Origin: a virus
UHGV virus genome: UHGV-0126489
Reading direction: 5' to 3' (one strand)
Length of the DNA: 12,682 nt
In this document: piece after piece, positions 6,213 to 10,941 of the stretch
Position numbering within the stretch: position 1 is the first letter of the stretch
How the letters are laid out: every line of letters starts with the position of its first letter
The notes under the pieces: model-generated
Databases searched by the model: none
Told to the model about the DNA's origin: nothing
The model's input: only the letters and a program-made list of their open reading frames with translations
Program-made: the position numbers and the translations under genes

Positions 6213-6391
6213 AGGACTGTCTCCTTCTGCCGGTTGAAATCACCCACAGCCCACTCTGCAAAGCTGTGGGTTACAATTTCCCTGTCACCTGGTACATTCA
6301 CTGCATAGCAATACTCCACCTTCGCTTTTCCACCCGGTACAGGAAGTGCAATCAGTTGCGAGCGACGGTAGTGTGTTGTTAAACTGTTCAT
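6053..6391 (-). CDS. Hypothetical protein (112-aa ORF); N-terminal about 55 aa look genuine, the remainder may be out of frame
   Basis: ATG at 6391 overlaps the upstream stop (ATGA), with GGAGA 9 nt upstream. After about codon 55 the translation becomes Ser-rich and low-complexity while the overlapping frame becomes protein-like. Confidence 0.3.
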
Positions 6392-6972
6392 GCGTTAGTT
6401 TCTCCACAACCAGAAGCAATCGACGCCACGACGCCCGGAGCTGCACACTCGCGGGCGTTACTCTTTTCCGGCGCACAAAAAACACGAAATAACAGTGTTA
6501 AATGCTCCTGCCACTTCGCCATTACTTGGTAGCTGTTCTCTTCGATTTGCTCACGCTCAGCCTGGTCAATAACTCCATCAGCAGTTGCCTTGCGTAAGTA
6601 CTGGGAATGCTTGCCAATCCATTCTATTGACTCCATCAGCCGCTGATTAATGTCACCATTGTCAATGTCATCAATGACCACCAGCGGCACAAACACCCCA
6701 TTACTACGACGGGCTATTGCATCTGTTACATGCCTGGTACCACTGGCATCCTGTAAAACCATGGCCCACTCAAGTGGAAAAATTTGATCCCCACCGCTAC
6801 GCAGTCTGTTATGCAATTGATCTTTTGCTGGGGTGATATCATCAGATTTATACAAACCAAGAATTTCTGCTGCTTCCTCATAGCCATGAGGTAAATCAGC
6901 AATCGTTCTTCGTATTGCTGCCACCAGCCATGCTGGTTGTTTATCAACTTTCCATTCAGGTTCTTTACCCAC
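6388..6972 (-). CDS. Hypothetical regulatory protein in the CII position (194 aa, GTG start 5 nt after the cro stop)
   Basis: Protein-like throughout ([27 protein letters not shown]...). Functional assignment is by gene order only. Confidence 0.35.
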
Positions 6973-6977
6973 GGTTT

Positions 6978-7175
6978 TTATGCCGCAGCACTGTTAGTCT
7001 TTTGATATAAAGACACGTCAACTTTCAGTTTCCCGTTAGTAATTTTTTCTAACTGGTACGCTCGGCCTTCAGGAATAATCTCAGGCCACTCTGAAACAGA
7101 CGGATGCTTAATACCTAGGGCTTCGGCGGTTTTACAAACTCCGCCGAAATAATTAATCACGTCGGATTTCCGCAT
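6978..7175 (-). CDS. cro: Cro-like repressor, 65 aa
   Basis: ATG at 7175 with GGGAGA 6 nt upstream; divergent from the repressor gene across the operator region; size and sequence pattern like lambda Cro. Confidence 0.7.
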   Translation of the reverse strand: MRKSDVINYFGGVCKTAEALGIKHPSVSEWPEIIPEGRAYQLEKITNGKLKVDVSLYQKTNSAAA

Positions 7176-7207
7176 TTCTGTCTCCCGTTAAATTACGTTA
7201 AGCAGAA

Positions 7208-7272
7208 ATGTAGGATATCCAACATGCCAATGTCAAGAATCCTACATGGGCATGTGGTAGGATTGCCTACAT
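7208..7272. promoter_or_regulatory. OR-like tripartite operator with divergent promoters (pR on minus strand; pRM region on plus)
   Basis: Three 18-bp sites: 7208-7225 ATGTAGGATATCCAACAT, 7230-7247 ATGTCAAGAATCCTACAT, 7255-7272 TGGTAGGATTGCCTACAT. Minus-strand TTGACA (7236-7231) - 17 nt - CTACAT (7213-7208). Site 3 overlaps the repressor ATG at 7271. Confidence 0.6.
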
Positions 7273-7915
7273 GATGAACATGAGTGATCGTATTCGCCAA
7301 AGGCGAAAAAAACTGAACCTGACACAACAAGCACTGGCTGATTTGACTGGTGTGAACCGTGTCACGGTTACTGGATGGGAAAAGGACGACTACCAACCAA
7401 ATGGAGCCAACCTTCAAGCCCTAGCCAACGCACTTAAATGCGATCCTCTGTGGCTTGTTAGCGGAAAAGGCTCGCCTGAACCAAAGATAAATCTAAAACC
7501 TGAAATATTCGCAGTTAAAAAAGTCCCCCTCATCTCGTGGGTTCAGGCGGGTTCATGGACAATGACGGAGCCTGGTGTCAGGAAAGAAGATGCTGAAGAG
7601 TGGGTTTATACTACCGCCCTTGTATCAGAAATGGCATTTGCACTACGGGTCCGTGGTGATTCAATGACCAATCCCCTCGGCTCACCATCGATACCAGAAG
7701 GTTCTATCGTTATCGTAGAGCCAGATATTATTGATACAGAGTGTATTAACGGAAAAATCGTTGTTGCCCATATCAATGGTGGGCAAGAAGCGACACTCAA
7801 AAAATTTGTTGAGGACTGGCCGAACAGGTATCTCGTCCCACTAAATCCTAACTATAAAACTATTGAATGCGGTGAGAACTGCAGAATAGTTGGTCTTGTC
7901 ATAATGGATTTTTGA
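7271..7915 (+). CDS. Prophage repressor, P22 C2 / lambda CI type (XRE HTH N-terminal domain plus S24 LexA-like autopeptidase), 214 aa
   Basis: N-terminal HTH (IRQRRKKLNLTQQALADLTGVNRVTVTGWE); C-terminal GDSM Ser nucleophile motif and downstream Lys; collinear with recalled P22 C2. Start could be any of the ATGs at 7271/7274/7280. Confidence 0.85.
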   Translation: MMNMSDRIRQRRKKLNLTQQALADLTGVNRVTVTGWEKDDYQPNGANLQALANALKCDPLWLVSGKGSPEPKINLKPEIFAVKKVPLISWVQAGSWTMTEPGVRKEDAEEWVYTTALVSEMAFALRVRGDSMTNPLGSPSIPEGSIVIVEPDIIDTECINGKIVVAHINGGQEATLKKFVEDWPNRYLVPLNPNYKTIECGENCRIVGLVIMDF

Positions 7916-7935: not shown

Positions 7936-7961
7936 AAAACCGGGGTATCCCCGGTTTTTTT
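7936..7961 (+). terminator. Rho-independent terminator after the repressor gene
   Basis: AAAACCGGGG - TAT - CCCCGG followed by TTTTTTT (7955-7961). Confidence 0.7.
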
Positions 7962-7977
7962 ATGAGCCTATCTTTTC

Positions 7978-8031
7978 ATGTAGGATAACCAACATAAACT
8001 CTTGACACTTGCATGTTGGATATCCTACATT
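7978..8031 (+). promoter_or_regulatory. OL-like operator pair with pL-like promoter directed rightward
   Basis: Sites 7978-7995 ATGTAGGATAACCAACAT and 8013-8030 ATGTTGGATATCCTACAT. TTGACA (8002-8007) - 17 nt - CTACAT (8025-8030). The segment 8002-8030 is nearly identical to the pR segment on the other strand. Confidence 0.55.
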
Positions 8032-8148
8032 TGTTTTTAGAGTTGTGGTGAATGCGCAGGCTGATTCGCGAAAGACATTGCAGCTATTGCGGAAAAGAGC
8101 TGTTCGGCGGGGCAATTAAACGCCCGTATCTGGAGGTTAAAGAACAAA

Positions 8149-8424
8149 ATGAAAGTCCAGATTTTAAACAATAACTGTGAAGTCGTTTGGTCATACGACA
8201 TAGCCGCCCCTGTAGATCAGAGCGGCGATAGCTGGACCAATGGGAAACATCAGATTATGGCTGGAGTTGTGTTCTCTTTACGCCGTGCTTTGGAACAGGC
8301 TGAAGTATTTCCATCAGACCCTGAATGGAAATGGCCTTTTTCTATTTGTCCAAATTCGGAGAGTACATTTCAGAAAATTGGTCAGAAAGTCGCACTCGAA
8401 GAGCATCAGCCAACTGTTTCCTGA
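8149..8424 (+). CDS. Hypothetical protein, first ORF after pL (91 aa); no arginine-rich N-like motif
   Basis: ATG at 8149 with GGAGG 11 nt upstream; Trp-rich, protein-like. Overlaps the convergent 81-aa ORF by 83 nt. Confidence 0.35.
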   Translation: MKVQILNNNCEVVWSYDIAAPVDQSGDSWTNGKHQIMAGVVFSLRRALEQAEVFPSDPEWKWPFSICPNSESTFQKIGQKVALEEHQPTVS

Positions 8425-8587
8425 TTTTTTCAGGTAACTCGTCGGCATCGCAGAAACAACAACGCTCGATCATGTTGAAAGCCGATTCGTAGAACTGTTT
8501 CTGCTGAGTGTCGCTGAGACAGGAAAAGAGCGACGTTACGATGATTTTATTAATTGCATTATCAAGTTCTTTTTCATCAAAAGTCAT
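8342..8587 (-). CDS. Hypothetical small protein (81 aa), transcribed against the pL operon
   Basis: ATG at 8587 with AAGGA 7 nt upstream; helical-looking translation containing CCFC. Confidence 0.35.
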   Translation of the reverse strand: MTFDEKELDNAINKIIVTSLFSCLSDTQQKQFYESAFNMIERCCFCDADELPEKIRKQLADALRVRLSDQFSEMYSPNLDK

Positions 8588-8840
8588 TTGATTTTCCTTT
8601 TATGTATACGGGCTTAAAAGGATACCACCGAGCCTGAAGTGGTGAAAAGACAGGCACATAACAGCTAAGTATTTTCAACCAGAGAGAATCCTTAGCGTTG
8701 TGGTGAATGCGGCTCAGCGCACGCGGGTTAAGGTTGAGGCTGACAGTCGACCTTCTGTGGATACCCACCCGTCTGGTGTGCAACCTTCGCCAGGCACCGG
8801 GAGGCACCCGGCACCACAACTTTATGCTGTGTGTAGTCCT

Positions 8841-8887
8841 GGCGGTACCAGTTTGTACCCTTGCTTCAGGCTGGTACCGTCCTTTTT
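8841..8887 (+). terminator. Candidate intrinsic terminator / structured RNA 3' end
   Basis: GGCGGTACC(AG) pairs with (CT)GGTACCGTCC around a 19-23 nt loop, followed by TTTTT at 8883-8887. Orientation matches pL transcription. Confidence 0.4.
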
Positions 8888-9024
8888 ACAAAACAGAGAA
8901 GAGCATCACCGGACGACGGGCTCATAACCCAATCCATCCGGGCGGCTGCCGCCGCAGGTGTTCTTCTCTGTTTTGTGGAGAAACTAATCGGCCTTGCAGG
9001 GTCGATATGATGAGGAGCAGCAAA

Positions 9025-9387
9025 ATGGCTAGCGAACGCAGTACTGATGTGCAGGCATTTATTGGGGAGCTGGACGGCGGCGTATTTGAAACCAAAATCG
9101 GCGCAGTTCTCAGTGAAGTCGCTTCCGGTGTGATGAACACGAAAACCAAAGGTAAGGTCTCGCTCAACCTGGAAATCGAACCATTTGATGAGAACCGTGT
9201 GAAAATCAAACACAAACTCTCATATGTTCGCCCGACTAACCGCGGGAAAATTTCCGAAGAAGACACCACCGAAACGCCGATGTATGTCAATCGCGGTGGT
9301 CGCCTGACTATTCTGCAGGAAGACCAGGGACAATTACTGACTCTTGCCGGTGAACCTGACGGAAAACTCCGCGCAGCAGGTCGTTAA
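9025..9387 (+). CDS. yfdP: YfdP-like protein of unknown function, 120 aa
   Basis: ATG at 9025 with GAGGAG 7 nt upstream. The ORF track's 226-aa version includes a non-coding, structured upstream part. Length equals recalled K-12 YfdP (120 aa); gene order yfdP-Q-R-S matches. Confidence 0.5.
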   Translation: MASERSTDVQAFIGELDGGVFETKIGAVLSEVASGVMNTKTKGKVSLNLEIEPFDENRVKIKHKLSYVRPTNRGKISEEDTTETPMYVNRGGRLTILQEDQGQLLTLAGEPDGKLRAAGR

Positions 9388-9452
9388 TATCGCTTTTAAT
9401 AAACTGATTATTTATCTCATCACTGAATATCTTTATATAGTGAGGACTTATT

Positions 9453-10277
9453 ATGTCTCAGAACTTAGACGCAACCGCAATTAATCAAATCCATGCCCTT
9501 ATTTCTGCTCAGGGTGTTAATGAAATTATCAATAATATTGGTGCCGATGCTGTGGCATTGCCTGAGAATTTCCGCATTCATGATCTGGAAAAATTTAATT
9601 TAAATCGCTTCCGTTTCCGTGGTGCACTTTCCACTGCCAGCATCGATGACTTTACCCGTTATTCTAAAGATCTTGCAGATGAAGGCACCCGCTGCTTTAT
9701 CGATGCCGATAATATGCGAGCAGTCAGTGTGCTTAACCTGGGTACTATTGATGAACCAGGTCACGCAGATAACACCGCCACTCTCAAACTGAAAAAGACA
9801 GCACCGTTCTCTGCTCTGTTGTCTGTTAATGGCGAGCGTAACTCCCAGAAGTCACTGGCAGAATGGATTGAAGACTGGGCCGACTACCTTGTGGGCTTTG
9901 ATGCTAATGGTGACGCCATTCAGGCAACCAAAGCGGCTGCGGCGATCCGTAAAATCACAATTGAAGCGAACCAGACCGCTGATTTTGAAGACAATGACTT
10001 CAGCGGCAAACGCTCCCTGATGGAGTCTGTCGAAGCGAAGACCAAAGACATTATGCCAGTGGCATTTGAATTTAAATGCGTTCCGTTTGAAGGTCTGAAA
10101 GAACGTCCGTTTAAATTACGCCTCAGCATTATCACTGGCGATCGTCCTGTACTGGTTCTGCGCATTATTCAGCTGGAGGCGGTGCAGGAAGAAATGGCTA
10201 ACGAATTTCGTGATCTGCTTGTTGAGAAATTCAAGGACAGCAAAGTAGAAACCTTTATTGGTACTTTCACCGCCTGA
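9453..10277 (+). CDS. yfdQ: YfdQ-like protein (DUF2303 family), 274 aa
   Basis: ATG at 9453 with GAGGA 6 nt upstream; length equals recalled K-12 YfdQ (274 aa). Family assignment from memory of gene order and length, not alignment. Confidence 0.55.
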
Positions 10278-10289
10278 TTTCATTACTGC

Positions 10290-10311
10290 AAATGCCCCTG
10301 CGGGGGCATTT
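10290..10311 (+). terminator. Hairpin AAATGCCCC-TGCG-GGGGCATTT after the yfdQ-like gene (candidate terminator)
   Basis: 9-bp stem with GC core and A/U-rich ends; no separate U-tract beyond the stem. Confidence 0.35.
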
Positions 10312-10404
10312 ATGGAAACGTAATTTACTCAATAATCGCCGGATGGTGAGGGATTCTTTTTACCAGAATTCAGCGCGGTGCAGCGCATATACGTGGAGAA
10401 CAAA

Positions 10405-10941
10405 ATGTCATTTATCAAAACTTTTTCTGGGAAGCATTTTTATTATGACAGGATAAATAAAGACGACATCGATATTAACGATATCGCGGTTTCCCTTTCA
10501 AATATCTGTCGCTTTGCCGGTCATCTTTCGCACTTCTACAGCGTCGCCCAACATGCGGTTCTTTGCAGCCAGTTGGTGCCGCAGGAATTTGCTTTTGAAG
10601 CGTTAATGCATGATGCAACAGAAGCGTATTGCCAGGACATTCCCGCACCACTGAAACGCCTTCTTCCTGACTATAAACAAATGGAAGAAAAAATAGACGC
10701 CGTAATCCGTGAGAAATACGGGTTACCCCCAGTTATGAGTACGCCCGTGAAATATGCCGATCTCATCATGCTGGCAACCGAACGCCGCGATCTCGGGCTT
10801 GATGATGGCTCTTTCTGGCCTGTACTGGAAGGTATCCCGGCAACAGAGATGTTCAACGTGATTCCACTGGCTCCAGGCCATGCCTACGGGATGTTTATGG
10901 AACGCTTTAACGAATTATCGGAGTTACGAAAATGCGCATGA
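10405..10941 (+). CDS. yfdR: HD-domain phosphohydrolase, YfdR-like 5'-deoxynucleotidase, 178 aa
   Basis: ATG at 10405 with GGAG 6 nt upstream (ORF-track GTG at 10378 is less likely). His ... HD motif (AQHAVL ... LMHDATEAY) typical of HD hydrolases; length equals recalled K-12 YfdR (178 aa). Confidence 0.6.
   Translation: MSFIKTFSGKHFYYDRINKDDIDINDIAVSLSNICRFAGHLSHFYSVAQHAVLCSQLVPQEFAFEALMHDATEAYCQDIPAPLKRLLPDYKQMEEKIDAVIREKYGLPPVMSTPVKYADLIMLATERRDLGLDDGSFWPVLEGIPATEMFNVIPLAPGHAYGMFMERFNELSELRKCA

Follow-up and report, generated by a model that had tools for sequence, protein, structure and literature searches.

A 15-nucleotide (nt) motif found twice downstream of the early leftward promoter, pL, of an Escherichia coli prophage probably marks the 5' edge of an STnc100-type phage RNA that is modular and structured, a reading to which we assign a probability of about 70%; on this reading the second copy opens a complete RNA and the first is a relic. 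The DNA concerned, UHGV virus genome UHGV-0126489 (12,682 nt, analysed as a whole and termed the window), is lambdoid prophage DNA like that of SfV and CPS-53. The motif, GTTGTGGTGAATGCG, lies on the + strand at 8042-8056 (copy 1), starting 2-3 nt after the expected pL transcript start, and at 8697-8711 (copy 2). We term the RNA at copy 2 B-type, and the sister form to which copy 1 belongs A-type.

An earlier note on this DNA had reported two identical 15-mers; they are real, though the positions it gave were one base too high. It was also right in putting copy 1 beside the pL start, the motif beginning 2-3 nt 3' of the expected +1, and copy 2 at the opening of a structured, G+C-rich segment, which is a real RNA starting at that point. 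The identity of the copies extends beyond the 15-mer, to 19 of 20 nt (TTAGnGTTGTGGTGAATGCG, 8037-8056 against 8692-8711). No other 15-mer is repeated within the window, and allowing up to three mismatches disclosed no third site for this one there. Some exact 15-mer direct repeat nevertheless appeared in 76 of 1000 composition-matched windows simulated by a first-order Markov model (7.6%). Statistics alone suggest a repeat that is marginally non-random, not a decisive one, and the case for its reality rests on comparative data.

The comparative data show the motif to be one strand of a helix. It consists of 9 nt of a closing helix, P1 (GUUGUGGUG), an invariant AAU and the first 3 nt of a hairpin, H1. 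The exact 15-mer is present in at least 120 IMG/VR contigs; among the matches listed, 104 of 130 occurrences are followed, 70-200 nt on, by a conserved 3' hairpin and a complementary strand, and about a dozen of the 130 are unrelated coding matches. The two ends of the element retrieve each other: an anchor on the 3' end (CAGCACCGGNCACCACA) brings back the 5' GUGGUGAAUGCGCAGGCUGAUGCGC, and a 5' anchor brings back the conserved 3' end. When the anchor is H1 only, which leaves both helix strands free in the alignment, the 5' strand varies widely (GAUUGGAUG, UGGAGCCGG, AGCGGUCUG, UCUAGUCGG and others) and the 3' strand follows it. Over 77 distinct scaffold sequences, double-sided changes occur at 8 of the 9 pairs of the closing helix and the inner seven pairs are 94-99% paired, a percentage somewhat inflated by our having picked the 3'-strand offset (0-2 nt) for best pairing. 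Covariation in this helix is strong over more than 100 phage contigs; in the set of 77 sequences it scores 0.293 as against 0.093 in shuffles, of which none in 500 reached the observed value, and 0.04-0.09 with a slid partner. The closing helix of phage P1, GUUGCGGUG/CACCGCAAC, shows the same pairing relationship. On this comparative evidence, selection on the motif's nine helix nucleotides is for their pairing and not for which letters they are. Their covariation with the 3' partner speaks against a sequence-specific protein site, and the identity of the two 15-mers of the window comes from the commonest form of the closing helix being present in both alleles. The RNA strand was assigned from promoters, terminators and Rfam orientation; the excess of G:U over A:C (19 against 12) is weak and biased by the pairing rule, and was not used.

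Copy 2 introduces a complete element. The motif there provides the 5' strand of the closing helix (8697-8705), the junction AAU (8706-8708) and the first 3 nt of H1, and the structured RNA occupies 8697-8820 on the + strand: closing helix, H1, three inner, variable hairpins (8730-8795), a 3' hairpin, H3 (CCGGGAGGCACCCGG), and the 3' strand of the closing helix, CACCACAAC (8812-8820), which forms a perfect 9-nt inverted repeat with 8697-8705. Folded alone, 8697-8818 takes up this same architecture, its 3' hairpin abutting the 3' strand. The earlier note had proposed a short hairpin after each copy: that of copy 2, TGCG-GCTCAG-CGCA, is real and is H1, whereas its counterpart at copy 1 is weakened by a T at 8066. 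A permissive Rfam scan of the whole window gave one meaningful match, to STnc100 (RF02076), at 8667-8889 and across the full model (41.2 bits, E 3.2e-6); in that alignment the motif supplies the UGGUG 5' strand of the closing helix, the AAU and the start of the first hairpin. Homologues in SfV and phage P1 score 39.5 and 33.4 bits, respectively, and B-type elements are found in SfV, SfII, SfIV, ST64B, phiES15 and P1.

STnc100 is a prophage small RNA of Salmonella and E. coli with no function or target established; it and PasD, the latter found by RIL-seq with Hfq, are both prophage-encoded small RNAs for which shared ancestry has been proposed (bioRxiv 10.64898/2026.05.13.724894). Over the full model the copy 2 RNA shares with STnc100 the closing helix UGGUG/CACCA, the AAU, the first hairpin, the inner hairpins and the terminator hairpin; copy 2 alone also shares a near-identical 3' segment, CACCGGGAGGCACCCGGCACCA, with H3 abutting the 3' strand. 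It shares with STnc100 and PasD a prophage location, but lies in a pL leader rather than downstream of stx2 or Q, and its A-type sister has only the scaffold in common with STnc100. The B-type RNA is a divergent member of the known STnc100 family. Expression as a discrete, Hfq-associated small RNA is described in the literature for canonical members only.

Downstream of the B-type RNA is an intrinsic-terminator-like hairpin, 8841-8887 on the + strand, with a 15-bp stem and 11-nt loop (hairpin 8841-8881) followed by a U run, CUUUUUAC. It is strong (-24.4 kcal/mol, z = -5.3) and aligns to STnc100 model positions 170-206; a consensus terminator scan passed over it, its loop being longer than 8 nt. 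The terminator at 8841 is kept downstream of A-type and B-type elements alike. The RefSeq pipeline (PGAP) places a pseudogene for a "frameshifted hypothetical protein" over the B RNA, the terminator and the long hairpin that follows (locus L307, 5241-5551, equivalent to 8700-9010 of the window) and annotates no RNA there; this pseudogene is almost certainly a mis-annotated non-coding RNA. A second, weak match to STnc100, at 10269-10448 between yfdQ and yfdR (20 bits, E 0.85), combines a GC hairpin, CCCUGCGGGG, with a terminator-like 3' end, and an equally weak match occurs in SfV (locus L003, 4123-4302); it probably reflects chance or mere terminator resemblance.

Copy 1 opens no such complete structure. 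The A-type element of the window, 8042-8127 on the + strand (86 nt), has the 5' helix strand, the AAU, a weakened H1 and a portion of the variable core, with neither the 3' hairpin nor the 3' helix strand present. These 86 nt are 97.8-98.4% identical to the start of complete 135-nt elements in mEp460 (locus L001, 1501-1635) and Lys8385Vzw (locus L002, 1852-1986), which run 49 nt further, the end in both phages being given by ...AAGCCGGAGAUCAGCACCGGUCACCACAAC and ...GCCGGAGAUCAGCACCGGUCACCACAAC. The A-type has the same closing helix and AAU as the B-type, H1 in the form GCGCA-GGCUGA-UGCGC and a 3' hairpin. In phages of the Lys8385Vzw type the complete element starts 2-3 nt after the pL start. 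Homology of the window to mEp460 and Lys8385Vzw covers 8039-8127, breaks off, and returns at 8840, with the terminator; homology to SfV covers 8147-9500 (99.1% by BLAST), a block holding orf33, an opposite-strand open reading frame (ORF) and the B-type RNA. SfV has the B copy only and no A copy. The copy 1 region shows no excess of folding energy (z = +0.6), and one H1 pair is lost through T8066, where the family has G. The truncation junction, GCCCGTATCTGGAGGTTAAAG, is also seen in further contigs, where another module stands upstream and a complete B element again follows; of 5426 complete E. coli genomes, 395 have the whole arrangement of the window. Copy 1 is thus what mosaic recombination has left, 86 nt from the 5' end, of a second allele of this RNA, and not a second working site. 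The earlier note is supported so far as the two copies are a shared functional RNA segment on the pL-transcribed strand, and the motif recurs at equivalent positions in related phages, the check which that note had called for.

That note had also suggested a recombination junction. The 5' edge of the motif does coincide with a mosaic boundary: homology of the window and mEp460 begins at 8039, upstream of which lies a promoter in one case and a leader hairpin in the other. The idea is to that extent right. That the 15-mer is a DNA-level element, such as a recombination or integration core, or a coincidence, strikes us as very improbable. The mosaic boundaries at element edges, the frequency of exact 15-mer repeats in simulated windows (7.6%) and the fact that the 3' strand and the anti-arm described below form direct repeats around the unit are what such a reading would lead one to expect; but both copies run on into homologues of the same RNA scaffold, and covariation of paired strands would, at the DNA level, call for a cruciform. 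The elements, moreover, are not accompanied by a recombinase gene, and they are oriented for transcription within operon leaders.

Upstream of the element lies a second possible partner for the 5' strand of the closing helix. Directly 5' of copy 2 the RNA folds into a leader hairpin, P0 (8664-8696, + strand; GCUAAGUAUU/AAUCCUUAGC with a 13-nt loop), the positional counterpart of a covarying leader hairpin, AAGAGCAUU/AGUGCUCUU, in relatives. Most family members carry (C)AGUGCUCUUUCC just upstream of the element, containing the boxA-like UGCUCUUU, and this pairs with AAGAGCAUU 35-55 nt upstream; covarying versions read AAGGACAUU/AGUGUCCUU, AAUGACACU/AGUGUCAUU and AAGCUGCCUG/CAGGCGGCUU. Among 177 leaders a perfect 9-bp candidate for the leader hairpin exists in 78; shuffled controls yielded 15. 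Just 5' of P0 is an anti-arm, CACAUAAC (8655-8662, + strand), complementary to the outer part of the copy 2 5' helix strand; the minimum-energy fold pairs it with GUUGUG(G), spanning the leader hairpin. The corresponding segment is CACAAC in most members and follows changes in the helix, CACCACAGG occurring with CCUGUGGUG and CAGCUUAU with AUAAGCUG; an exact 6-mer complement is found in 50 of 154 leaders, where about 4-5 are expected. Since anti-arm and 3' strand are both complementary to it, the 5' helix strand has two alternative partners, one upstream and one downstream.

From these features we infer that leader-type hairpins may be processing or punctuation signals, cleavage of which would release the 5' strand for pairing in the closing helix. 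Lys8385Vzw and copy 1 need no leader, because transcription starts 2-3 nt before the helix strand, and such leaderless pL starts fit the idea of a mature 5' end at the start of that strand. RNase III sites of T7 and the stable RNAs of the T4 transfer RNA (tRNA) cluster offer a parallel in that long covarying hairpins lie between RNA modules and before the first mRNA, in that some have tRNA-like inner arms, and in that some elements directly follow tRNA genes; the likeness is one of layout. Some leader loops hold T-loop-like or anticodon-loop-like arms, some leaders end in tRNA-like T arms, and in some contigs real tRNA genes lie a few hundred nt 5' of the element. Reading the leader as a permuted acceptor stem was tried and left as speculation: the alanine-identity pair G3:U70 is a wobble in the commonest variant and is lost in covarying ones, and the T-loop-like and anticodon-like inner arms favour the ordinary strand order.

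A long hairpin resembling the leaders precedes yfdP in the window (8886-8978, + strand; an inverted repeat of -51.3 kcal/mol, z = -7.3). It is built like a family leader, ACAAAAC-AGAG-AAGAGCAUC...GGUGUUCUU-CUCU-GUUUUGU, but stands before an mRNA. Its inner arm has a 7-nt loop, CUCAUAA, like an anticodon loop with CAU, and its loop motif GGGCUCAUAACCCAAUCCA recurs in the leader-hairpin loops of other, unrelated phages. It may be a processing signal or a tRNA mimic; ARAGORN reported no tRNA or transfer-messenger RNA (tmRNA) gene in the window, and an Rfam search for these at E<=1, long hairpin included, gave no match.

The presence of UGCUCUUU in leaders is the best argument for the suggestion of a boxA/nut-type protein site, in which the 15-mer or its flank would be bound by NusB/NusE or an N-like protein to assemble an antitermination complex. 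In 42 of 177 family leaders, those of P1 and HK620 among them, this 8-mer precedes the motif by 2-3 nt, with a GC-stemmed hairpin after it, and it matches the beginning of rrn boxA exactly. The family has in common with the nut sites of lambda and P22 and with rrn boxA an early position in an antiterminated operon and, in some relatives, UGCUCUUU upstream and a GCGC-stemmed hairpin downstream. The resemblance goes little further. The hairpin loop does not seem to match the boxB pentaloop known from the literature. Neither window copy has UGCUCUUU, copy 1 coming directly after the promoter and copy 2 having AAUCCUUAGC in that place, and the boxA consensus (CGCUCUUA/UGCUCUUUA) is absent from the 16 nt upstream of both. 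In relatives UGCUCUUU forms the 3' side of a hairpin that covaries, so that selection acts on its pairing and not on its sequence; the helix strand of the 15-mer itself varies freely provided its 3' partner co-varies; and, unlike nut-bearing operons, this one has no N gene. The suggestion hardly survives these observations, and we rate its probability as slight.

The two copies might instead act together, the 5' strand of copy 1 competing for the anti-arm (8655-8662) or the 3' strand (8812-8820) and so tuning the folding or processing of the downstream RNA. The region does contain two GUUGUGGUG strands and two segments complementary to them, copy 1 with its flank matches 8812-8824 at 12 of 13 positions, slightly better than copy 2's own flank does, and the truncated copy has been kept in several mosaic contexts and in 395 genomes. 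Yet 600-770 nt separate the partners, and as transcription proceeds the local pairings come first; among the motif matches listed, each of the 80 rows for a single locus has one match, and SfV has only the B copy; T8066, which breaks H1, is what relaxed constraint would produce; and a recent spread of one mosaic block would account for the retention equally well. We consider such riboregulation unlikely.

The chief alternative concerns how polymerase passes the terminator at 8841-8887. In HK022, putL lies just downstream of pL (PMC9378689), and the main rival to our reading is that the RNA is a put-like cis antiterminator, which when folded would bind the transcribing polymerase and let it read through 8841-8887 and later terminators in place of N. 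As in HK022, a cis-encoded structured RNA follows an early promoter of an N-less lambdoid phage with terminators behind it (PMC9378689). From pL to the first terminator no gene resembles N; the first ORFs from pL belong to phrog_3195 and phrog_204, both of unknown function; phages of the Lys8385Vzw type have the RNA alone between pL and terminator; the order promoter, structured RNA, strong terminator, long operon holds in the window and in HK620; putL itself is placed just after pL (PMC9378689); and early-left expression logically requires some antitermination or leakiness. Nonetheless, the similarity to put that the earlier note envisaged is not there. The putL and putR sequences read from HK022 share no motif with the element, and a distant-mode blastn search with 8690-8900 against 50,697 phage records gave no match to HK022. 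Nor is the architecture alike: put RNA comprises two stem-loops in about 70 nt and lacks a closing helix, whereas the present family has a variable core and many contexts. The put RNAs suppress termination in cis through the zinc-binding domain of the polymerase beta' subunit. Family members also occur in virulent phages (N4-like, Vi01-like), in clusters of non-coding RNA and tRNA genes, and behind Q-dependent late promoters, which are already antiterminated; a hypervariable core of 30-150 nt is odd for docking on a conserved polymerase domain; and a terminator stands behind only about 40% of members. Put-like action thus seems improbable to us, though less so than the other alternatives considered above.

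The C4 RNA of P1 and P7 (immI), small and structured, is closed by a helix in which its 5' end pairs with its 3' end, and short repeats lie on the same transcript, as here. C4 is said, in 1995 work of Hartmann et al., to be cut from its operon transcript by RNase P. The 15-mers of the window differ, however, in being identical and not complementary to the 5' strand of the RNA, and no target gene of the icd/ant type is present. C4 antisense RNA (RF01695) gave no match at E<=1 in the window, the c4 sequence of P1 is unrelated, and the match in P1 is in the ban operon, not in immI.

In the reading we favour, that of an STnc100-kind RNA with a relic allele upstream, the B-type RNA would be transcribed from pL within the early-left leader, and the flank of P0 could sequester the 5' strand of its closing helix. 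Cleavage at or near the leader hairpin, together with termination at 8841-8887, would free a small RNA of about 120-190 nt, while polymerase proceeding past the terminator would express yfdP and later genes. The constant scaffold (closing helix, H1 and H3) would give folding, processing and stability, and the variable core would carry the specific activity, most likely base pairing of the Hfq type as reported for STnc100 and PasD. Recombination would have swapped everything after nt 86 of the A-type for an SfV-type block comprising orf33, the antisense ORF and the B-type RNA, leaving the copy 1 remnant as a non-folding relic that would now be 5' untranslated region. Of the readings of the RNA, a processed or terminated small RNA is the likeliest.

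Several points weigh against this reading. The 41.2 bits of the copy 2 region fall short of the STnc100 gathering score of 47, and the single-sequence folding z-score of the B element, -1.0, is unremarkable, so that its structure is supported by comparison and not by energy. The choice of helix offset mentioned above is a further reservation. Rfam gave no match on the copy 1 region, and the A-type parent went undetected by RF02076 at E<=1 or E<=5. Only about 40% of family members have a terminator behind them. The repression of pL in the lysogen fits poorly with a constitutive small RNA. The truncated copy is kept at about 98% identity in several mosaic contexts; its persistence may reflect recent spread or, conceivably, a function. 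Finally, everything beyond the B fold and the truncation of copy 1 is inferred.

The family itself is broad. A 41-nt query of leader plus motif matches 209 or more phage records, temperate and virulent: lambdoid HK620, HK629 and HK633, P1/P7-like, N15-like, N4-like and Vi01-like phages, and many siphoviruses of Klebsiella and E. coli. No RNA is annotated at the element in the matched records. Members sit in the leaders of pL transcripts and of late operons, in the ban operon of P1 and within tRNA clusters. HK620 has its element between pR'/qut and tQ, which is annotated as the late terminator, HK629 has one between an HNH gene and the holin gene, and P1 has two, one A-like and one B-like, in the leader of the ban operon with tRNA genes. 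A terminator-like hairpin follows within 150 nt in 72 of 179 unique elements, as against 23 control windows. IpeX of DLP12 was tried as a named relative and rejected, there being no element in the quuD-essD region of K-12. Most members match nothing in Rfam; the A-type scaffold, the leader/anti-arm switch and the breadth of the family are outside Rfam 15, and the literature searched yielded no description of them. The 15-mer itself turned up in full text only within unrelated primers.

The core of family elements varies from 30 to 150 nt. In one IMG/VR contig (L181) it is tRNA-like, with a canonical D arm, GCUCAAUCGGUAGAGC, and a T arm, CUGGUUCGAUUCCAG, within the scaffold, and in another (L083) it contains two T-arm-like hairpins, which suggests that the scaffold can carry differing RNA cargos.

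In 22 of 308 loci a conserved tmRNA-like module lies 150-1000 nt upstream of the RNA elements; the window has none. It reads GAUGGUUUUCGUAAGCGACUUUGCGG...AUAAAU, then a 10-codon frame from GCA AAC and one or two stops, and is found in HK620 (locus L214, 1545-1635; 15.83-15.92 kb of the genome), the P1 ban operon (L005, 1306-1400; 68.88-68.98 kb), the N4-like phage nithesis (L217, 1768-1860) and Bas79 (L216, 1607-1700). It encodes peptides such as ANEEMYLAVA, ANDDLMMVAA, ANDDVVLMAA and ANDEQFLAVA; for comparison, the tag of E. coli tmRNA is ANDENYALAA. The Rfam model tmRNA_permuted matches the modules weakly, at 20-29 bits where the gathering score is 47, and ARAGORN finds no tmRNA by default; at 80% thresholds it offers permuted candidates with the same tags, alongside obvious false positives. 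Our search of the literature on phage tmRNA-like RNAs found only the mycobacteriophage and Bacillus phage G cases, which are also the only phage tmRNAs listed in a 2014 census. In P1 the operon strand carries, in the roughly 1.5 kb after Pban, a DicF-like RNA, the tmRNA-like module, two tRNAs and two elements. The genes plp and upl (L005, 1896-2465 and 2243-2340) are annotated on the strand opposite to the ban operon, and plp overlaps a tRNA-Thr gene and the A-like element with its leader; the status of plp and upl as ORFs may deserve a second look.

These observations raise a wider reading, which we put forward tentatively as possible but less probable than its contrary: that the 15-mer is the mark of a large, essentially uncatalogued superfamily of modular phage RNAs, STnc100 being one branch, that belongs to a system for manipulating translation or RNA processing. 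A constant scaffold (closing helix, AAU, H1 and H3) would surround a hypervariable cargo of 30-150 nt; the covarying leader hairpin would at first sequester the 5' strand, and excision from a long transcript would then act as a maturation switch; and in P1, HK620, N4-like and other phages the RNAs would be linked to tmRNA-like modules with tag-like peptides such as ANDDLMMVAA*. If so, the members would not be ordinary base-pairing small RNAs.

The setting of the two copies is that of an early-left operon. A cII-like gene (6388-6972) and a cro-like gene (6978-7175) lie on the - strand, and a cI-like repressor gene (7271-7915; phrog_4) on the + strand, followed by a terminator hairpin at 7936-7958 (+), a perfect 10-bp inverted repeat, AAAACCGGGG/CCCCGGTTTT, with a T run. 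The promoter with its operators spans 7978-8031 on the + strand: TTGACA at 8002-8007, an 18-nt spacer and TACATT at 8026-8031, scoring 10 of 12 in a promoter scan, with operator-like inverted repeats at 7978-7995 and 8013-8030. The operator sequence also appears, as reverse matches, near the divergent cro/cI region (8000-8032 against 7206-7238). This strong promoter, at 8002-8031, is the equivalent of pL and drives yfdP, yfdQ, yfdR and more.

Between the motif copies are two ORFs of unknown function that share 83 nt on opposite strands: one of 91 amino acids like SfV orf33 (8149-8424, +; phrog_3195, E 4e-65), and one of 81 amino acids (8342-8587, -; phrog_3311, E 3e-55), with a good ribosome-binding site. 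The latter is transcribed in the direction opposed to pL, and a promoter-like site of its own lies at 8587-8558; PGAP annotates this ORF as WP_000141753.1 in an E. coli genome that is nearly identical here, and leaves the orf33-like ORF unannotated. The first gene after the RNA region is yfdP-like (9025-9387, +; phrog_204, named yfdP by PGAP), and yfdQ, yfdR and other genes follow it. A 19-nt inverted repeat, 89% complementary (TTATGAGCCTATCTTTTCA/TGAAAAGACAGGCACATAA), joins 7960-7978, just 5' of pL, to 8643-8661, just 5' of the copy 2 leader, and GGCTCATAA at 8919-8927 is likewise complementary to 7960-7968. In CPS-53 of K-12 the pL and RNA region upstream of yfdP is deleted, so no K-12 data apply.

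Read in this way the window acquires an anatomy in which pL is followed by a dead RNA allele and a mosaic insert, next by a live STnc100-like RNA and a terminator, and then by a processing-type hairpin and the operon. The analysis bears on how N-less lambdoid phages pass the terminator behind pL. The motif leads to a scaffold that is very common in enterobacterial phages and that, beyond the STnc100 branch, has neither an Rfam model nor an annotation; its constant frame with variable cargo, the competing leader hairpin and the tmRNA-like neighbours are leads on how phages make and use non-coding RNA.

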